Below are positions 17,269 through 33,530 of a stretch of DNA of 64,000 nt, one piece after another; the first letter of the stretch is position 1, and each line of letters opens with the position of its first letter. The notes below the pieces were generated by a model. That model worked only from the letters and a program-made list of their open reading frames with translations. It was not told the DNA's origin and searched no databases. The translations under genes were made by a program, and so were the position numbers. The stretch lies in assembly GCA_964548165.1 (NCBI GenBank), contig CAZJQD010000008.1:1979-65978 (forward strand), written 5' to 3'. This DNA is from an uncultured bacterium. GTDB taxonomy: Bacteria > UBA8481.

Positions 17269-17778
17269 ATGAAAAAGCAGTCGCGGAAGTCGACCACGGT
17301 GACGGACATCGCGTCCGGTCGGAGGAAGACCTCGAAGTCGTCCTTCGGGAACGAGGGTCCGACCCTACGCACGGAAGGCAAGGTCGTCAGCCTGTCGCGA
17401 CGGGTGGAGTCCTCGTCGGGGTCGCCTGAACGCGCCACTTCCCGCAAAGATCGCGCCGCCGAGTGCCTGGCGGAGCTGGGATTGAGCGATCGCGAGATCG
17501 CGGCGATCCGCGAGAGCGTGCCGGTCGTGCCCTTCGACATCGAGCTCGTGGGTCGTTGTCGCGCCTTCGTCACCGCGCACCTCCACGGGTGGGACCATGC
17601 CACGTGGCTGGCTTTCGTGGAGGACCTGGCGGCGGACGGCTATGCGATCGGGACGGATAGCGGCCGCTGGTGGCTGGCCCAGAAGTTCGTCGGCAGTATC
17701 CTCGAGGCGATCCGGGCCTCCGAGCTTGCCGCGATCGTGGCGGCGGATACCACGCTCCCGGTGGCCAAGGCGGCGTAA
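17269..17778 (+). CDS. hypothetical protein (basic disordered N-terminus plus a conserved-looking C-terminal domain)
   Basis: Start refined to MKKQSRK with SD GAGGAGG 6 nt upstream (the track ORF begins at 17107). No family recognised. Confidence 0.45.
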   Translation: MKKQSRKSTTVTDIASGRRKTSKSSFGNEGPTLRTEGKVVSLSRRVESSSGSPERATSRKDRAAECLAELGLSDREIAAIRESVPVVPFDIELVGRCRAFVTAHLHGWDHATWLAFVEDLAADGYAIGTDSGRWWLAQKFVGSILEAIRASELAAIVAADTTLPVAKAA

Positions 17779-17813
17779 AGAGAGGCTCCTAACCTGATGT
17801 GTTCATGTAATTG

Positions 17814-17986
17814 AACCACGGAGACACAGAGACACGGAGAAAGTCCGGGCTCGAAATCAGAATCACAGATAGTCGAGCGGACTTTATAATGGGACCCAAT
17901 TGAGGGAAGTATTACGGGAGAAGCGTTGTAGTTCCCCCGACTTAAGCATGGTGCCTCTGTGCCTCAGTGCCTCCGTGGTTCGATTT
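17814..17986 (+). repeat. AT-rich island holding a 26-nt imperfect inverted repeat that encloses ~115 nt, followed by a T6 tract; candidate structured ncRNA or MITE-like element
   Basis: Left arm aaccacggag-acac-agag-acac-ggag (17814-17839). The reverse complement of 17951-17980 is aaccacggag-gcac-tgag-gcac-agag-gcac, 22 of 26 identical; the mismatches would be G·U-compatible on the opposite strand. Both arms are internal tandem triplications of an 8-mer. Inner 13-bp bulged hairpin aaagtccgggctcga…tcgagcggacttt. Followed by cgattttttgg. Local GC about 48% against about 70% background. Lies between two convergent gene 3' ends. Confidence 0.4.
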
Positions 17987-18092
17987 TTTGGCTCGGGATA
18001 ATGGTCTTCGGGACCGGAGCGGCGACGCGCGGAGGAAGAGGTTCACCGCACGGGCGCTGTCTTCGGTCCTTTGTCGTTAAGGGGGAATCGTC

Positions 18093-18140
18093 AAAGCGCG
18101 ATCGCTAGAGCGCGGTCGCTAGAGCGCGATCGCTAGAGCG
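18093..18140. repeat. three tandem copies of a 15-nt unit (gcgcgatcgctagag / cgcggtcgctagag / cgcgatcgctagag), each carrying the GCGATCGC and CTAG palindromes, plus a degenerate fourth unit; abuts the stop of the RnfC-like gene
   Basis: Read directly: aaagcgcgatcgctagagcgcggtcgctagagcgcgatcgctagagcgcgatctcgag. The last unit overlaps the minus-strand stop codon at 18133-18135. Confidence 0.6.
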
Positions 18141-19449
18141 CGATCTCGAGGCGATGGGCGCGGAGCGAGAGCACCTGCCCGTCGATGGGGCTATGGACGC
18201 GCGCGCTGACGCCTTCCGCAGCCTCGCCGACGACGTCGCCGATCTTGACCCGGTCCCCGACTGCCTTCGTGGGTATGGCGGGCGCGCCGGAGTGGCCGTC
18301 GAGCGGGAGAAAGACCCGGCCGGGGGCCAGGGGCAGTCCTTGCAGGGGCGCCGGCACATCCCACTCGCCGATGCCGAGCCGCTCCACGAGCGCGTGCACG
18401 GGGACCTTCCGGTTCTCGAAGAACTCGTTGAGGACGACGTTCTGTTCCCGGAACGGGCTCTTGAGGTTGTGCTTCTTCATCGCCACGCGCGTCTGGACCA
18501 TCATCTCGCGGACCGGCAGGGGAATGGGGCAGGCCCAGAGCGAGCAGAGTCCGCACTCACAGCAGAGCGAGGCATTGAAGACGTCGGGGGCCATGGGTTG
18601 AGCGGAGAGCCCCGAGCGCATGACCTTGGAGGGCCAGCAGCGGTGGCCGAGCAGGTAGCGTGGGCAGAATTCGGTGCAGAGGTTGCACTGGTCGCAGGCG
18701 GCGCGCGCGACGTGCTGGTGCTGCTCGGGCTTCTGCTGGCGCCGCGTCACGTAGGGATGATCGGCGGGGAAGACGAGGAAGCCGCTCGTCTTCTTCGTGA
18801 CGATGGCCGAGGCGGGATCCACGAATCGCCCCATCATCGGCCCTCCATCCAGGATGGCGAAATCGGCGACGGATGGTCCTCCGGCTGCTTCCAGGCAGAA
18901 CGAGAGGGGTGTGCCGATCGCGGTCTCGACGGTGATGGGGTTATGGACCGCGCCGCCGATCGTGATGTGACGCGAGGTTACCGGGCGTCCCTCGTCGACG
19001 GCGGCGGCGAGCTGGATGAGCGTGACGACGTTCTGGACGAGGCAGCCGACGTCGCCGGGGCGCCCGCCCTCGGGGATGATCCGGCCCGTGACCTCGTAGA
19101 CGATGTTGAACTCGTCGCCGGCAGGATAGTAGTCGTCGAGGATGGCGACCTCGACGCCGGTGCCGGCGGCGGCCTTCTCGACCGCGGCGATGGTGGCGTG
19201 GTGCTTGTGCTTGATGGCGACGCTGAATCGCGTGGCGCCGACGGCCTCGCCGGCCAACTGGAGGCCGCGGACGAGCTGGCGCGCGTAGGCGCGGCCGACC
19301 TGCTGATCGATCCTGAGGAGTGGTTCGCACTCGGCGCCATTGGCGATCACCCAGTTGGCCTTGCCGGAAAGCTTGATGTGGGTGGGAAAACCGGCGCCGC
19401 CGGCGCCCACGATGCCGGCCGCTTTCGCCGCTTCATTGATACTCATCAT
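18133..19449 (-). CDS. RnfC/PduS-family NADH-binding iron-sulfur flavoprotein (orphan; no other rnf genes nearby)
   Basis: GIVGAGGAGFPTHIKL (NuoF/RnfC-type NADH/FMN-binding glycine motif) near the N-terminus. SLBB-like segment. Two 4Fe-4S ferredoxin motifs CDQCNLCTEFCP and CCECGLCSLWACP. C-terminal barrel-sandwich-like GDRVKIGDVVGEAAEGVSARVHSPIDGQVLSL. Start set at MMSINEAAK (the track ORF begins 25 codons earlier). Confidence 0.65.
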   Translation of the reverse strand: MMSINEAAKAAGIVGAGGAGFPTHIKLSGKANWVIANGAECEPLLRIDQQVGRAYARQLVRGLQLAGEAVGATRFSVAIKHKHHATIAAVEKAAAGTGVEVAILDDYYPAGDEFNIVYEVTGRIIPEGGRPGDVGCLVQNVVTLIQLAAAVDEGRPVTSRHITIGGAVHNPITVETAIGTPLSFCLEAAGGPSVADFAILDGGPMMGRFVDPASAIVTKKTSGFLVFPADHPYVTRRQQKPEQHQHVARAACDQCNLCTEFCPRYLLGHRCWPSKVMRSGLSAQPMAPDVFNASLCCECGLCSLWACPIPLPVREMMVQTRVAMKKHNLKSPFREQNVVLNEFFENRKVPVHALVERLGIGEWDVPAPLQGLPLAPGRVFLPLDGHSGAPAIPTKAVGDRVKIGDVVGEAAEGVSARVHSPIDGQVLSLRAHRLEIAL

Positions 19450-29191: not shown

Positions 29192-31270
29192 ATGAACGGC
29201 GAGATGTCGCTCTGGGATTATCTCCGGGTTATTCGCCGTCGCTATCGCGTCATCCTCGCCGTGCCCTTCCTGGCCCTCTTGGTATCCATGCTGTATGCCA
29301 GGAACCTGTCGGAGATTTACGCCACTCGCGCGCTCCTGGAGATCCAGAAGAACCTGATTCGCGAGGGCGCGGGACTCCAGCGCGTCTTCGTCTCGGCCTT
29401 TGAACGGGCGACGCTGACCCGGCTTGCCGGGAACAAGGAAGTCGCCGCTTTCGCCGCGGAGCTCCTGGCCCAGGATCCGGAGTTTGCGGGCATGGACAGC
29501 GCGCGGTTGGCTGATGAGATCCGGGCCACGACCCAGGTCGGCAACCTGGAAAGCTCCAATCTGATCGAGGTTGGCGCCCGGGGCTCGAATCCCTCGCGCA
29601 TCACCAAGTTCTGCAACGCCTACGCGCAGGCTGTCATCCGGTATCACGACGAGCAGCGCCGCACGAGCGTGCAGGATCTCAAGGACTACCTGCTGGCGCA
29701 GATCGGGCGTTACGCCGAGAAGATCCATGGGCTCGAGCAGGACCTCATCCGGCTTCGCGCCCAGGGCGGCGGTGGCGCGACAGCGTCTCAGCCGGACCTG
29801 GCCCTGAGGATCGAGGAACGCCTCGCCGAGCTGAGATCGCGCGCGCGCCTGTCGGACGAGAGGCTGGCGGCCGTCGATCGCGCGGCCCTTTCCTCGGACG
29901 TGGAGGCCCTGGTGGCGGCGGTTCCCATGCCCGATCTTGCCCGGGACCTGCAGGAGCTGCGTGCCAAGCGGGCCGAGCTGGCGGATCTTCTCGGGAAATA
30001 CACCGAGGTGTATCCCTCGGTGGCCAGGGTCCGAGAGACCATCAGTCGACTGGAGGAGGGTTTGCGGGGCCGGTTGCCCGGCGCCGTCGCCACCGCTCGA
30101 CAGGTCGTCCTGGCCGAGAGGGAGTCCGTGCGACGGGAGCTCGAGCGGCTCCAGGCGGAACGGGCGATGATCGCGGCGGCGATGAGCGCTCTTCCGGACC
30201 GGCTCCAGCAGGAGGGATCGGCCCAGCGGGAGCTGGCGATCGCCACGTCGGTCAACCAGATGTTCCGCCAGCGTCTGGAGGACCTGGACCTATCCCTCTC
30301 CACTCCCTCGGATCGTCTCATCCTGGCGGAGGCGGCGCAGGTGCCCGCGAACCCCTATTACCCGAATCGCCGCCTGATCCTCTCGATCGGATTTTCGATT
30401 GGCCTGGCGCTCGCTCTGGCAACGGCCTTTCTCCTCGAGACGCTGGATACCAGCCTCTCGGCGATCAGCGAGGTGGAGCGGTTCGTCGGCAAGCCCATTC
30501 TCGCGGTCATCCCCTCGATCCGGATCGCGCCGCAGAAGGTCGCGGACTGCAAGTTCCCGGTGCGCAAGGAGCTCCTGGAGCGCCTCCCGCTCCTCGTGGA
30601 TTCACGGTCGCCCGCCGCCGAGGCCTATCGCACATTGCGCGCGGTCCTGCAGAGCCGCTTCTTTGCGGACGGTGGTCGCACCCTGCTGGTGACCTCCACG
30701 ACGCCCCAGGAAGGAAAGACGACGACGATCGTCAACCTCTCCATGGCGTGCGCGGCCGCCGGCATGAGAACGGTGCTGGTGGGCGCCAACATGCGCCACC
30801 CCGTCATCGGCCGCCATTTCGCCATCGATCGAACCCGCGGCCTCAACGAGATCCTCCAGGGGAGCATGACGATCGAGGAGTGTCTCCAGGCGACGGGACA
30901 CGAGAACCTCTCGATCATCGACTCCGGCGGCTTCGCCCGGCGGCCCGCGGAGCTCCTGGCCGGCCCCCGTTTCGATGAGCTCCTGGGGAGGCTGAAGGGG
31001 AGCTTTGACGCGGTCCTGGTGGATTCCCCGCCCAGTCTCCCGGTCGCCGACGCGGCCACCATGGCGTCCAAGGTGGACGGCGTTCTTCTCGTGTATCTTG
31101 TCAGCGTGGCGCCCCGTGATGCGCTCCTTCGCTGCAAGGAGATGCTCGAGAAGGTCGGTGGTCGGATCGTGGGGATCGTCTTCAACGACATCTGGGGAGC
31201 TTCGCAAATGGATTACGCGGGTTATTACTACCACCAGAAATACGCCGGCGACGAACTGAAGAGGTTGTAG
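29192..31270 (+). CDS. polysaccharide co-polymerase / tyrosine autokinase (Wzc/GumC/EpsB-like, PCP-2a), paralog 1
   Basis: N-terminal Wzz-type region (EMSLWDYLRVI…, TM), coiled coil, second TM. Cytoplasmic BY-kinase domain with P-loop TSTTPQEGKTTT, Walker B LVDSPP, and a C-terminal Tyr cluster YAGYYYHQKY. Confidence 0.8.
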   Translation: MNGEMSLWDYLRVIRRRYRVILAVPFLALLVSMLYARNLSEIYATRALLEIQKNLIREGAGLQRVFVSAFERATLTRLAGNKEVAAFAAELLAQDPEFAGMDSARLADEIRATTQVGNLESSNLIEVGARGSNPSRITKFCNAYAQAVIRYHDEQRRTSVQDLKDYLLAQIGRYAEKIHGLEQDLIRLRAQGGGGATASQPDLALRIEERLAELRSRARLSDERLAAVDRAALSSDVEALVAAVPMPDLARDLQELRAKRAELADLLGKYTEVYPSVARVRETISRLEEGLRGRLPGAVATARQVVLAERESVRRELERLQAERAMIAAAMSALPDRLQQEGSAQRELAIATSVNQMFRQRLEDLDLSLSTPSDRLILAEAAQVPANPYYPNRRLILSIGFSIGLALALATAFLLETLDTSLSAISEVERFVGKPILAVIPSIRIAPQKVADCKFPVRKELLERLPLLVDSRSPAAEAYRTLRAVLQSRFFADGGRTLLVTSTTPQEGKTTTIVNLSMACAAAGMRTVLVGANMRHPVIGRHFAIDRTRGLNEILQGSMTIEECLQATGHENLSIIDSGGFARRPAELLAGPRFDELLGRLKGSFDAVLVDSPPSLPVADAATMASKVDGVLLVYLVSVAPRDALLRCKEMLEKVGGRIVGIVFNDIWGASQMDYAGYYYHQKYAGDELKRL

Positions 31271-31280
31271 GAGCGGCGCG

Positions 31281-33530
31281 ATGGCCATCGGCTATGAAAT
31301 GTCGCTCCAGGATTACCTCCGGGTCATCTCGAAGCGTCGCTGGATCATTGTCATCTGCGCCTTCACGATCTTCGTCACGGCCATCGTCTATACCTCGAAA
31401 CTGACTCCCCGCTACGTGGCGCAAGGACGGGTGGAGTTGAACTACCAATCGACGCTGGCGAGCCTGCTTGCGGATGCCCTGCTCTACAAGGGGAACGAAT
31501 TGGCGACCGCGATCCAGTTCGCCTCTTCGATGCCGGTGATGGAGCGGGCCGCCAGGGAGCTGGGGCTCGTGGGGCCCCAGGCGACGAAGTCCCAGGCGAT
31601 AGCCGCCGCCGCCGACCTGCAGAGCAAGGTGGGCGTATCAGGCGACGGCCAGACCAATTTCATCCAGATATCCTTCACGCACTCCGATCCGCGGTTCTGC
31701 GCGGCCGCCGTGGACGCGATCGCCAATGCCTTTGCCAGGGAATATCGTTCCAGGAACACCCGGGATGCGGACCAGATCAAGATGTTCCTGGAAGAGCAGA
31801 TGCGTGCGGCGGAGCAGAAGCTCATCGACGCGGAGAACCAGATGCTGGCCTTGAAGCAGTCCCAGCGCGGGGTCACGCTGGAGCCGGGTATCCAGGCGAA
31901 CATCCAGCGCGTCGCGGAGATGGAGGCGGAACTGGAGCGGGTGAGGGCGGAGCGTCGGGGCGTCGAGGCTTCCTTCAACCAGCTGGCGGAGGAAGAGCGG
32001 AGCGAGGTTCCAGGAGGGGAGGCGACCGCCGCGGTGCAACGCGATCCGGCGGTGCAGGCCCTCAAGAAGCAGTTGTTCGAGGCCGAGGTCGAGCTGGCAA
32101 CGCGGCTGAAAACGCTGACTCCCAGGCACCCGGAGGTTCGGGCGGCCCAGGAGACCATTCGCCGCTTGCGCACGGAGATGGAGCTCACGATCGGCCAACT
32201 GGTCGAAGGCCATCGTTCCGGGCTGGAAGCCCGCGTCGTCGCGCTTCGCACGCGCGAGGACGCGCTCCTGCGCTCCCTTCCCAACTTGCGCGCCGCGCTC
32301 GACGACCTGCCGCGGCACCAGGTGGAAGTGGCCCGGGTGCAGCGAGCGATCGTCATGAACGAGAAGCTCTTCACGTTCTTCCGGGACAAGCTGGAGGAGA
32401 AGAAGTACGACGAGCTGGTCAACAGGGAAAACGCGATCACGGTCATCGAGCGGGCCGCGGTACCGCGCGTTCCGATCTACCCTGCGCGCTCCGCCAACGC
32501 CGCGATCGGTGTCGCCATCGGATTGATCCTCGGCCTGGCCCTGGCCTTCGTGGTGGAGGCGATGGACACATCGATCGGAACGATCGAGGATGTCGAACGC
32601 ACGACGGGCCTGTCCGTCATGGGCGTCATCCCCTCCATCGCCGTGGACGAGGAGTTGCCCGGTCGAACCCAGCAACCGGTGGTGGCGCTCGATCCCGAGC
32701 GGTCCAAGGCGAAGGATCTGCACGAACGGTTGAGCGAGCTGGAGGAGGTGTCGGCAGTCTCGGCGGGATCGGGGCGTGGCGGGAGCGAGGCGTTTCGCCC
32801 CCAGCTCATCACGTTCTACGATCCGAAGTCGCCCATTTCCGAGGCCTACCGCACGCTCCGCACCAATGTCCAGTTCAAGGGCCTGATGGGCAACGCCAAG
32901 ACGCTCACCATCACGTCCTCTGGTCCCCAGGAGGGCAAGACCACGACCCTGTGCAATCTCGCCGTCGCCATTGCCCAGTCCGGCCAGCGCGTGCTCGCGA
33001 TCGGCTGCAATCTCCGTCGCCCCGCCCTGCACAAGATGTTCGGCATTCGCAAGAAGCCGGGATTGACCGACGTGCTGATCGGCGCTCGGACCTGGCAGGA
33101 GGTTGTGCAGGAGACGGGCATCGAGAACCTGCATGCCTTCTGTTCCGGCCCCATCCCGCCGAATCCCTCCGAGCTCCTGGGTTCGCCCGAGATGACGGAA
33201 CTGATCCGCCAGGTTCGGGAGGCTTACGACGTGATTCTGCTGGACTGCCCGCCCGTCCTGCCCGTGACCGATGCCGCCGTGCTGGCCTCGAAGACCGACG
33301 CGGTTCTCCTCGTGTACTTCGTGGGGCGCGCGGCGCGCGAGGCCCTGCTCAGGGCGAAGGTCCAGCTCGAGAATGTCGGCGCCAAGATCCTTGGAGTCGT
33401 CTTGAACCAGATCCCGGCCGAAGGTCGCCTCGGCTACTCCTACTACTATTATCACTACCACTATTACGGGGAGACGGCGCGCGAGGATAAATTGCAGCAG
33501 CAGAAAGTTCTCAAGAAGAAGCGCAGCTGA
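31281..33530 (+). CDS. polysaccharide co-polymerase / tyrosine autokinase (Wzc-like), paralog 2
   Basis: Same architecture as paralog 1 (EMSLQDYLRVI…; P-loop TSSGPQEGKTTT; LLDCPP). Longer C-terminal Tyr cluster YSYYYYHYHYYGE. SD GGAG. Confidence 0.8.
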   Translation: MAIGYEMSLQDYLRVISKRRWIIVICAFTIFVTAIVYTSKLTPRYVAQGRVELNYQSTLASLLADALLYKGNELATAIQFASSMPVMERAARELGLVGPQATKSQAIAAAADLQSKVGVSGDGQTNFIQISFTHSDPRFCAAAVDAIANAFAREYRSRNTRDADQIKMFLEEQMRAAEQKLIDAENQMLALKQSQRGVTLEPGIQANIQRVAEMEAELERVRAERRGVEASFNQLAEEERSEVPGGEATAAVQRDPAVQALKKQLFEAEVELATRLKTLTPRHPEVRAAQETIRRLRTEMELTIGQLVEGHRSGLEARVVALRTREDALLRSLPNLRAALDDLPRHQVEVARVQRAIVMNEKLFTFFRDKLEEKKYDELVNRENAITVIERAAVPRVPIYPARSANAAIGVAIGLILGLALAFVVEAMDTSIGTIEDVERTTGLSVMGVIPSIAVDEELPGRTQQPVVALDPERSKAKDLHERLSELEEVSAVSAGSGRGGSEAFRPQLITFYDPKSPISEAYRTLRTNVQFKGLMGNAKTLTITSSGPQEGKTTTLCNLAVAIAQSGQRVLAIGCNLRRPALHKMFGIRKKPGLTDVLIGARTWQEVVQETGIENLHAFCSGPIPPNPSELLGSPEMTELIRQVREAYDVILLDCPPVLPVTDAAVLASKTDAVLLVYFVGRAAREALLRAKVQLENVGAKILGVVLNQIPAEGRLGYSYYYYHYHYYGETAREDKLQQQKVLKKKRS

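Follow-up and report, generated by a model that had tools for sequence, protein, structure and literature searches.

A palindromic element of tandem 8-mers between two convergent genes of an uncultured bacterium, and the link of its arm family to GxxExxY genes

Features of the locus

The DNA analysed here is a 64,000-nucleotide (nt) stretch from an uncultured bacterium of the lineage UBA8481 (GenBank contig CAZJQD010000008.1, positions 1,979 to 65,978 of the forward strand), referred to below as the window. In the spacer between two convergent genes it contains an AT-rich palindromic element whose two arms are built from tandem 8-mers (Table 1). This element belongs to a family of tandem-8-mer arms that is tightly linked to genes encoding GxxExxY proteins, and it is probably a non-autonomous version, devoid of a gene, of a palindromic DNA element that is widespread and whose full-length relatives enclose a GxxExxY gene.

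The two arms make up a 31-nt inverted repeat that is 84% complementary, with 115 nt between the arms; such terminal inverted repeats are a trait of miniature inverted-repeat transposable elements (MITEs). Each arm consists of three tandem 8-mers. The 24-nt core of the left arm is an exact match to the family arm pattern (described below) and the right arm matches the same pattern as its reverse complement, with 0 chance matches expected from shuffles of the window. The ends of the element read TTGAA followed by CCACGG on one side and TTCGA on the other, a TTCA/TGAA-like extension of the palindrome that is also found in the rest of the family. When folded as RNA, the element reaches -78.3 kcal/mol on the + strand (z -5.5) and -80.1 kcal/mol on the - strand (z -7.0); the corresponding value for the DNA fold is -38.5 (z -5.5), and none of 200 shuffles (0/200) folded as well as the element. 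The single sigma-70-like promoter match compares with 0.1 expected in shuffles, which is weak evidence.

Much of this structure had been described in an earlier note made from the sequence of the window. The inverted repeat of tripled 8-mers, the inner bulged hairpin, the T-tract after the stem and the position between two convergent gene ends are all confirmed. The AT-rich island of approximately 48% guanine plus cytosine (GC) content that the note placed at 17779-18092 is correct in part: GC content is 0.48-0.50 for 17798-17989 and 17800-17999 (0.50 for the latter, compared to approximately 0.68 around it), but 0.54 for 17779-18092 as a whole. The island does not extend to 18092, as 17990-18132 lies outside the element and aligns with the closest relative found (locus L120, discussed below). 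Within the 64-kb window, the tandem-8-mer element is present as a single copy. A second low-GC patch of the window, at 31201-31500, is a coding gene junction with no repeats.

Table 1. Features at and around the palindromic element (positions in the window)
Position	Strand	Feature	Remarks
17798-17989	none	Whole palindromic element (putative insertion)	Approximately 192 nt; GC 0.49 compared to a background of 0.68; ends ±5 nt
17809-17839		Left, purine-rich arm	AATTGAA + CCACGGAGACACAGAGACACGGAG; 8-mer CACGGAGA x3.0 at 17817-17840 (Tandem Repeats Finder)
17840-17950		AT-rich spacer	GC 0.48; first bases AAAG; holds the inner hairpin
17840-17886		Inner bulged hairpin	aaagtccgggctcga / tcgagcggacttt; in minimum-energy folds
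17862-17890	+	Sigma-70-like promoter match	ATCACA-17-TATAAT; 10/12; in the spacer; consensus match only
17955-17985		Right, pyrimidine-rich arm	CTCTGTGCCTCAGTGCCTCCGTGG + TTCGATT; 8-mer GTGCCTCA x3.4 at 17951-17977 (Tandem Repeats Finder)
17984-17989	+	T6 tract	Directly after the extended stem
17990-18132		Ordinary intergenic DNA, outside the element	Alignable with L120 (alignment A1)
17269-17778	+	Flanking gene, conserved small hypothetical protein	Stop codon 19 nt before the element; tblastn with L120 and L122 orthologues
18133-19449	-	Flanking gene, 438-aa Nuo51/SLBB/4Fe-4S/RnfC_N protein (Pfam)	Convergent with 17269-17778

Comparison with related genomes

The product of 18133-19449, referred to below as the RnfC-like protein, is identical to P0001 (100% identity over 438 aa), and its nearest named relative is encoded by a metagenome-assembled genome (MAG) of Candidatus Hydrogenedentes (66% identity). 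The product of 17269-17778 has no Pfam match. In L120, the closest relative found, the RnfC-like protein is 84% identical and the small convergent protein 60% identical to those of the window, and the gene order RnfC-like, small open reading frame (ORF), EamA, TPR, PpiD is common to both. The convergent spacer is approximately 150 nt in L120 compared to 354 nt in the window: approximately 17798-17989 of the window has no counterpart in L120, whereas 17990-18132 and the stop-codon regions align. At the junctions, the empty site of L120 reads ...TACCTGA-GCGA-GCCGGGATGA... and the window reads ...AACCTGA-(192 nt)-GGCTCGGGATAA...; the ends of the element were set from alignment A1 and from the reading of these junctions.

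The element is an insertion/deletion difference with respect to the nearest relative. It is absent in L122 and L123 as well, where the convergent spacer is 35-50 nt in length. Insertion in the lineage of the window appears to be the more economical reading of these alignments, with few genomes behind it. In L121-L123, the RnfC-like protein is 69-73% identical to that of the window and a Memo gene separates the RnfC-like gene from the small convergent ORF (L121 has a methyltransferase gene at that junction besides the Memo gene). The Memo-family gene is lost in the window and in L120, and no remnant of it was detected in 17990-18132.

The end of the RnfC-like gene is itself repetitive. At 18095-18145 of the window, the 14-nt unit AGCGCGATCGCTAG is present in 3.6 tandem copies (94% matches). 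The copies correspond to the final 14 nt of the RnfC-like gene (TAG stop codon included), and each holds the palindrome GCGATCGC. L120 has one copy of this unit, making the array in the window a tandem duplication specific to its lineage and located immediately after the stop codon.

A family of tandem-8-mer arms

The arm pattern CCACGGAG-N-CAC-N-GAG-N-CAC-N-GAG, which has 20 specified bases, was scanned against one genome per species. It is present in at least 119 genome loci belonging to about 18 phyla, with spacer lengths from 6 to about 500 nt; we estimate that approximately one match would be expected by chance in the 596 Gb scanned on both strands. The hosts include Acidobacteriota, Planctomycetota, Nitrospirota, Nitrospinota, Gemmatimonadota, Chloroflexota, Verrucomicrobiota, Lentisphaerota, Kiritimatiellia, Chlamydiota, Spirochaetota, Armatimonadota, Sumerlaeota, Desulfobacterota, several classes of Proteobacteria and Bacteroidota (including the isolate Lewinella cohaerens DSM 23179), as well as a Heliobacteriaceae MAG and a Methanoperedens MAG.

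Among the matches listed, 67 arms have a downstream partner arm at a distance of 6-1044 nt. The purine-rich arm comes first in all 67 of these pairs, and most of the spacers are 6-130 nt in length, with a median of approximately 35. In 60 pairs the palindrome is extended outward, with (a)TTCA preceding CCACGGAG at one end and TGAA(t) following CTCCGTGG at the other, and the spacer starts with AAAA in approximately 70% and ends with TTTT in approximately 55% of cases. Members of the family are defined by tandem 8-9-nt units of the form C-R-C-N-R-A-G-N, with the purine-rich arm first and termini TTCACC.../...GGTGAA. Spacers have a lower GC content than their host in 33 of 35 cases (0.42 compared to 0.59), a pattern into which the window fits (0.48 compared to 0.68); the AT-rich spacer is a trait of the family. 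The window element resembles the other loci in its arms only, as its interior is dissimilar to all other spacers. In one locus (L070, 3400-3720) the arms are nested, with a CACGGAG-type hairpin inside CACGAAG-type arms.

The orientation of the neighbouring genes was determined for 49 members using a rough ORF heuristic: 36 lie between co-directional, 6 between convergent and 7 between divergent genes, a mix that resembles that expected for adjacent bacterial gene pairs generally. Members are often found 3-20 nt from the neighbouring genes. This background-like orientation and these often short distances indicate that the family is not a class of terminators. Runs of at least four T residues (T4+) are found downstream of 12 of 60 members (20%).

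The pattern of substitution in the arms was compared in 60 family stems. The four variable positions of each arm carry purines on the left side (88%) and pyrimidines on the right. They form Watson-Crick pairs in 47% of cases, compared to the 39% expected for independent arms. G-U and A-C mismatches are found in similar numbers (67 versus 61), and mismatches are not clustered on one strand (11 elements, compared to 11.9 expected). Each arm keeps its own sequence pattern, with no covariation and no excess of G-U over A-C. Selection therefore looks to operate on the DNA and not on one RNA strand, and nothing points to an RNA helix of a particular strand as its target. The GGAG repeats were also considered as mimics of Shine-Dalgarno sequences or of CsrA sites (A-N-GGA), but this possibility is disfavoured by the alternation of G and A at the key position and by the double-stranded setting of the repeats.

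Association with GxxExxY genes

Full-length relatives of the element carry a GxxExxY gene of approximately 125 codons, located either between two arms or between two hairpins. Arms enclose such an ORF in L012 (Chitinophagaceae), L038 and L055 (Terriglobia). The encoded protein of approximately 125 aa matches TIGR04256 (E 4e-45) and PF13366 PDDEXK_3 (E 9e-45), and belongs to the PD-(D/E)XK nuclease superfamily. The association is also evident from the side of the protein. In 80 metagenome loci picked purely by GxxExxY protein similarity, with an arm defined as at least two C-R-C-N-R-A-G units at 8-10-nt spacing, tandem-unit arms are present on both sides of the gene in 45 loci and on at least one side in 70, compared to none of the 80 (0/80) when the flanks are shuffled. 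The general form of the arms around these ORFs is (TT)CACC-(C-R-C-N-R-A-G-N)x2-5, in tandem 8-9-nt units, with CACGGAG, CACAGAG, CACGAAG, CGCAGAG, CGCCGAG, CGCAAAG and others as sub-types. Where paired arms lie 250-1100 nt apart, a GxxExxY gene is found between them in 50 of 60 cases, and no other small-ORF family recurs. The arm family is tightly linked to GxxExxY genes.

In an alignment of GxxExxY proteins the D...E-x-K residues are invariant or nearly so, and the protein is likely an active nuclease as judged from these residues. The family is large, comprising 23,654 clusters at 50% identity (E <= 1e-3). No relative was identified by sequence in the PDB, and an AlphaFold2 model (predicted local distance difference test [pLDDT] score of 55) is too uncertain for use. 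PDDEXK_3 has been listed as a family of unknown function with multiple transfers between divisions (Steczkiewicz et al. 2012, PMC3424549). Some of the relatives P0246-P0258 are 260-295 aa in length and match the 124-aa query twice, making them tandem two-domain versions. In the searched literature, GxxExxY, PF13366 and TIGR04256 receive incidental mentions only and the exact arm strings have no match. The association between arms and GxxExxY genes is undescribed in Rfam 15 and in the searchable literature, the coverage of which is incomplete, such that a prior mention elsewhere is possible.

Gene-bearing and gene-less states

Several loci contain more than one hairpin. L112 has two copies of one gene-less hairpin with near-identical interiors, positioned as direct repeats flanking a GxxExxY gene, and L119, L130, L169 and L196 have 2-4 gene-less hairpin copies each, with interiors that are 80-100% identical and GxxExxY genes likewise flanked by the copies. 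Gene-less hairpins behave as units of copying. Three of them are found in tandem at L196 (1593-2085) beside a GxxExxY gene; these are 96-97% identical and have a period of approximately 181 nt.

The junction between the SpoU-methylase and MgsA genes in closely related Terriglobales (MgsA 91-100% identical) is found in three states. L206 and L217 have a GxxExxY gene between two arms; L216 and L219 have a GxxExxY gene of another allele between two hairpins, with CACAGAG units; and L218 has no gene, but instead a perfect palindrome of 30 bp, made up of CACAAAG/CACGAAG units around a 17-nt loop. At this one orthologous site, states with and without the gene alternate. The polarity of the L218 palindrome (1489-1565) is reversed, such that it begins with the pyrimidine arm and its GGTT/AACC 'outer' ends point toward the loop, and it may be either the junction of two elements or a vacant target. 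A reversed arm order is also observed around the gene in L173, L179, L187 and L196.

At the same junction, the upstream SpoU-methylase gene of L206 takes its final ~10 codons, together with its stop codon, from the left arm (1458-1487), as it also does in L207-L215 and L217; the cassette-free L218 has a different, native stop in this gene. Because the cassette arm supplies the stop of the SpoU-methylase gene, insertions of this family can rewrite the 3' ends of genes. L206 has 3 units in the left arm and 5 in the right, compared to 3 and 3 in L217, which suggests that arm units are gained or lost by slippage. An identical protein, P0132, is encoded at this position in 24 contigs that derive from many samples, and this fixation at one site indicates that movement is not rapid.

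Origin of the element and alternative explanations

The explanation that we favour is that approximately 192 bp of DNA would have entered the 3' spacer of the convergent gene pair after the split from the L120 lineage. The element would have spread as DNA with the help of a trans-acting GxxExxY-type nuclease, whose substrate would be the arms or the hairpin/cruciform formed by them, in a process resembling homing or repetitive extragenic palindromic (REP)-like copying. Its RNA properties would then be by-products: read-through from either gene would fold into an interrupted stem of approximately 30 bp. On the + strand this stem would be followed by U6, and at present the element probably serves to terminate or stabilise the 17269-17778 transcript; to judge from the stem and the U-run, any termination of this upstream + strand transcript may be incidental.

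A number of observations weigh against this explanation. The polarity of the insertion is drawn from one relative with the same gene order (L120) and two with another gene order. No target-site duplication is present at the window junctions relative to the empty site of L120, and none recurs among the 60 family members. The 64-kb window contains no GxxExxY gene and the window spacer no coding remnant of one, so that derivation from a gene-bearing copy is a deduction only. For every member, nuclease action and mobility are read from sequence, and no sign of ongoing movement is observed over short timescales. The type of arm unit tracks protein similarity weakly, with a difference of 0.5-1.6 percentage points that is statistically detectable but tiny. 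The 80 loci picked by protein similarity are those most like the query, and the proportion of 70/80 with arms may not hold for the whole Pfam family. Finally, approximately 40 of 120 listed pattern matches are solo arms, for which no partner was recognised in a 3-kb range (such as L002, L003, L008, L013 and L026). Some solo arms are located beside other purine-rich short repeats or seemingly within genes (L003, in a gidA/mnmG-like ORF); decay of the partner, a larger cargo or assembly chimeras at the repeat are possible causes.

The earlier note had considered a small structured RNA, possibly 6S-like, to fit this patch. As a stand-alone RNA gene, the element would have a functional stem and inner hairpin and would use the T-tract as a terminator, and the very stable fold on both strands, the T6 after the stem and the promoter match within the element speak for such a gene. 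The promoter match lies inside the domain, however, such that a transcript starting there would be without the left arm. There was no match to Rfam 15 in the whole 64-kb window at gathering thresholds, and a scan of 17600-18300 at E <= 10 returned noise only (best E 0.79) and no 6S RNA; 20 family loci had no Rfam match and no ribosomal RNA (rRNA), and scanning the window for transfer RNA (tRNA) and transfer-messenger RNA genes identified none. The interior of the element is conserved in no other locus, only the arms being shared, and the 60 family stems show neither the covariation for which the note had asked nor a G-U bias. Most family members are placed within co-directional gene pairs, at a distance of 3-20 nt from either neighbour. 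The note had further held that absence of the repeat from a relative with conserved flanks would count against an RNA; this is the situation in L120, whose syntenic spacer lacks the element despite conservation of both flanking genes and of the non-coding DNA next to it. We consider an RNA gene of any kind, 6S RNA included, to be very improbable. A bidirectional terminator, which the note had also proposed, fares little better. A terminator or messenger RNA-stabilising hairpin evolved by the host for the convergent pair, with no mobile origin, would account for the position between the two 3' ends and for the long stem followed by T6 on the + strand. Intrinsic terminators have a short G+C-rich stem, a loop of 3-8 nt and a U-run; of these, the element has the T6, but its 115-nt 'loop' is far beyond terminator geometry, and for this reason a standard scan of 17500-18300 called no terminator. 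The T-run is on the + strand only, leaving the minus-strand gene with no U-tract, and L120 does without the element altogether. In the family at large, a T-run is present in just 12/60 members and 36/49 lie between co-directional genes, and local evolution of a terminator offers no explanation for an identical 24-nt arm in about 18 phyla. A host-evolved terminator is therefore quite unlikely, and terminator activity is at most a local side effect.

Of the suggestions made in the earlier note, a MITE-like insertion is closest to the evidence, in that the element appears to be inserted and has inverted repeats; the partner of its family is a PD-(D/E)XK nuclease rather than a known transposase, and target-site duplications are lacking. 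A conventional MITE or REP/REPIN (a paired REP) would be moved by a DDE transposase or by a RAYT (REP-associated tyrosine transposase, IS200-like), with GxxExxY as a frequent passenger or as a lander that prefers hairpins. Terminal inverted repeats, multiple copies per genome with conserved interiors in some MAGs, the nested arms of L070 and the weak correlation between arm type and GxxExxY sequence are all in keeping with such an origin. All-against-all clustering of 4112 ORFs from 119 loci, however, revealed no recurrent transposase-like or RAYT neighbour; GxxExxY is the sole recurring cargo, neither a GTAG nor a CGTC tag is present at the arm ends, and target-site duplications are absent. 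This makes a conventional MITE or REP unlikely as well. A blastn search of the element against plasmids and phages yielded no match.

The favoured explanation, a gene-less copy of a palindromic element associated with GxxExxY genes, can be extended into a broader proposal, which we offer tentatively and hold to be somewhat doubtful. Tandem-8-mer hairpins and GxxExxY nucleases might together constitute a previously undescribed, pan-bacterial selfish system (homing- or REP-like), in which a minimal PD-(D/E)XK nuclease would identify its own palindrome by the periodic CRC-N-RAG units, whether in duplex, hairpin or cruciform form, and would drive the copying of gene-bearing and gene-less hairpins into intergenic DNA. 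As a further twist, the transcribed hairpin may be processed into an RNA partner of the nuclease. If true, this proposal would provide a function for a family of more than 23,000 clusters that has so far been annotated by motif alone, and would explain a very common class of intergenic hairpin in soil and freshwater bacteria.

For the window itself, what had appeared to be a striking 'structured RNA' candidate is best read as an inserted palindromic repeat, and the patch should accordingly not be annotated as a small RNA gene. Its wider value lies in the family behind it: one 24-nt arm, made up of 8-nt units with a fixed CAC/GAG skeleton, across about 18 phyla. If the nuclease acts on the arms, a substrate for biochemical tests is now defined, as is a mechanism for the horizontal spread of the family. 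Hairpins that lie a few bases from the ends of genes, and that are able to supply the stop codon of the upstream gene as in L206, are relevant to gene calling, operon prediction and metagenome assembly.

Comparison with known systems

The family is similar in several respects to REP/REPIN-RAYT systems (Bertels & Rainey 2011, PMC3116915; Di Nocera et al. 2013, PMC3733652). In both cases, short extragenic palindromes are often paired into long hairpins, many gene-less copies are present per genome and the repeats are tied to one small nuclease-type gene that they flank. In contrast to REPs, the arms described here are tandem 8-9-mers with TTCACC ends and no GTAG/CGTC tag (as defined in PMC3733652), the partner has a PD-(D/E)XK fold rather than the HUH/Y1 fold of RAYTs, and the arm is common to about 18 phyla, whereas REPs are largely lineage-specific.

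A second parallel is provided by the intervening sequences (IVSs) of 23S rRNA, such as that of Coxiella burnetii (Warrier et al. 2016, PMC4990558). These consist of a selfish ORF of ~120 aa, of unknown role, within inverted repeats that form a long stem in the host transcript (the IVS stem being cut out by RNase III), and decay of the ORF leaves gene-less versions. IVSs are located in defined helices of 23S rRNA and encode the S23p/PF05635 four-helix protein, whereas the present family lies between protein-coding genes and carries PF13366; neither the window nor any of 20 family loci was found to contain rRNA. Correia elements and other bacterial MITEs (Delihas 2011, PMC3184786) are likewise gene-less insertions of 100-200 bp with inverted ends of ~26-30 bp, are intergenic and co-transcribed with their neighbours, and may carry promoter-like or terminator-like signals. 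Unlike the present family, MITEs have target-site duplications, a cognate DDE transposase and a narrow host range. With respect to integron attC sites, the right end of the window element is GTGGTTCGAT and not GTTRRRY at the boundary, and the neighbouring genes include neither a cassette array nor an integrase.

PD-(D/E)XK homing endonucleases such as I-Ssp6803I are small restriction-fold nucleases encoded within a sequence whose empty version is cut by the enzyme; I-Ssp6803I is intron-encoded and its target is a tRNA gene. By analogy, this offers a way in which a GxxExxY gene could enter vacant hairpins, the likeness being one of gene arrangement, with no sequence or structural similarity established between the two proteins. 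Given that the element lacks the traits of REPs, MITEs (target duplication), IVSs, attC sites and 6S RNA, we class it with the palindromic repeats that are associated with a nuclease.

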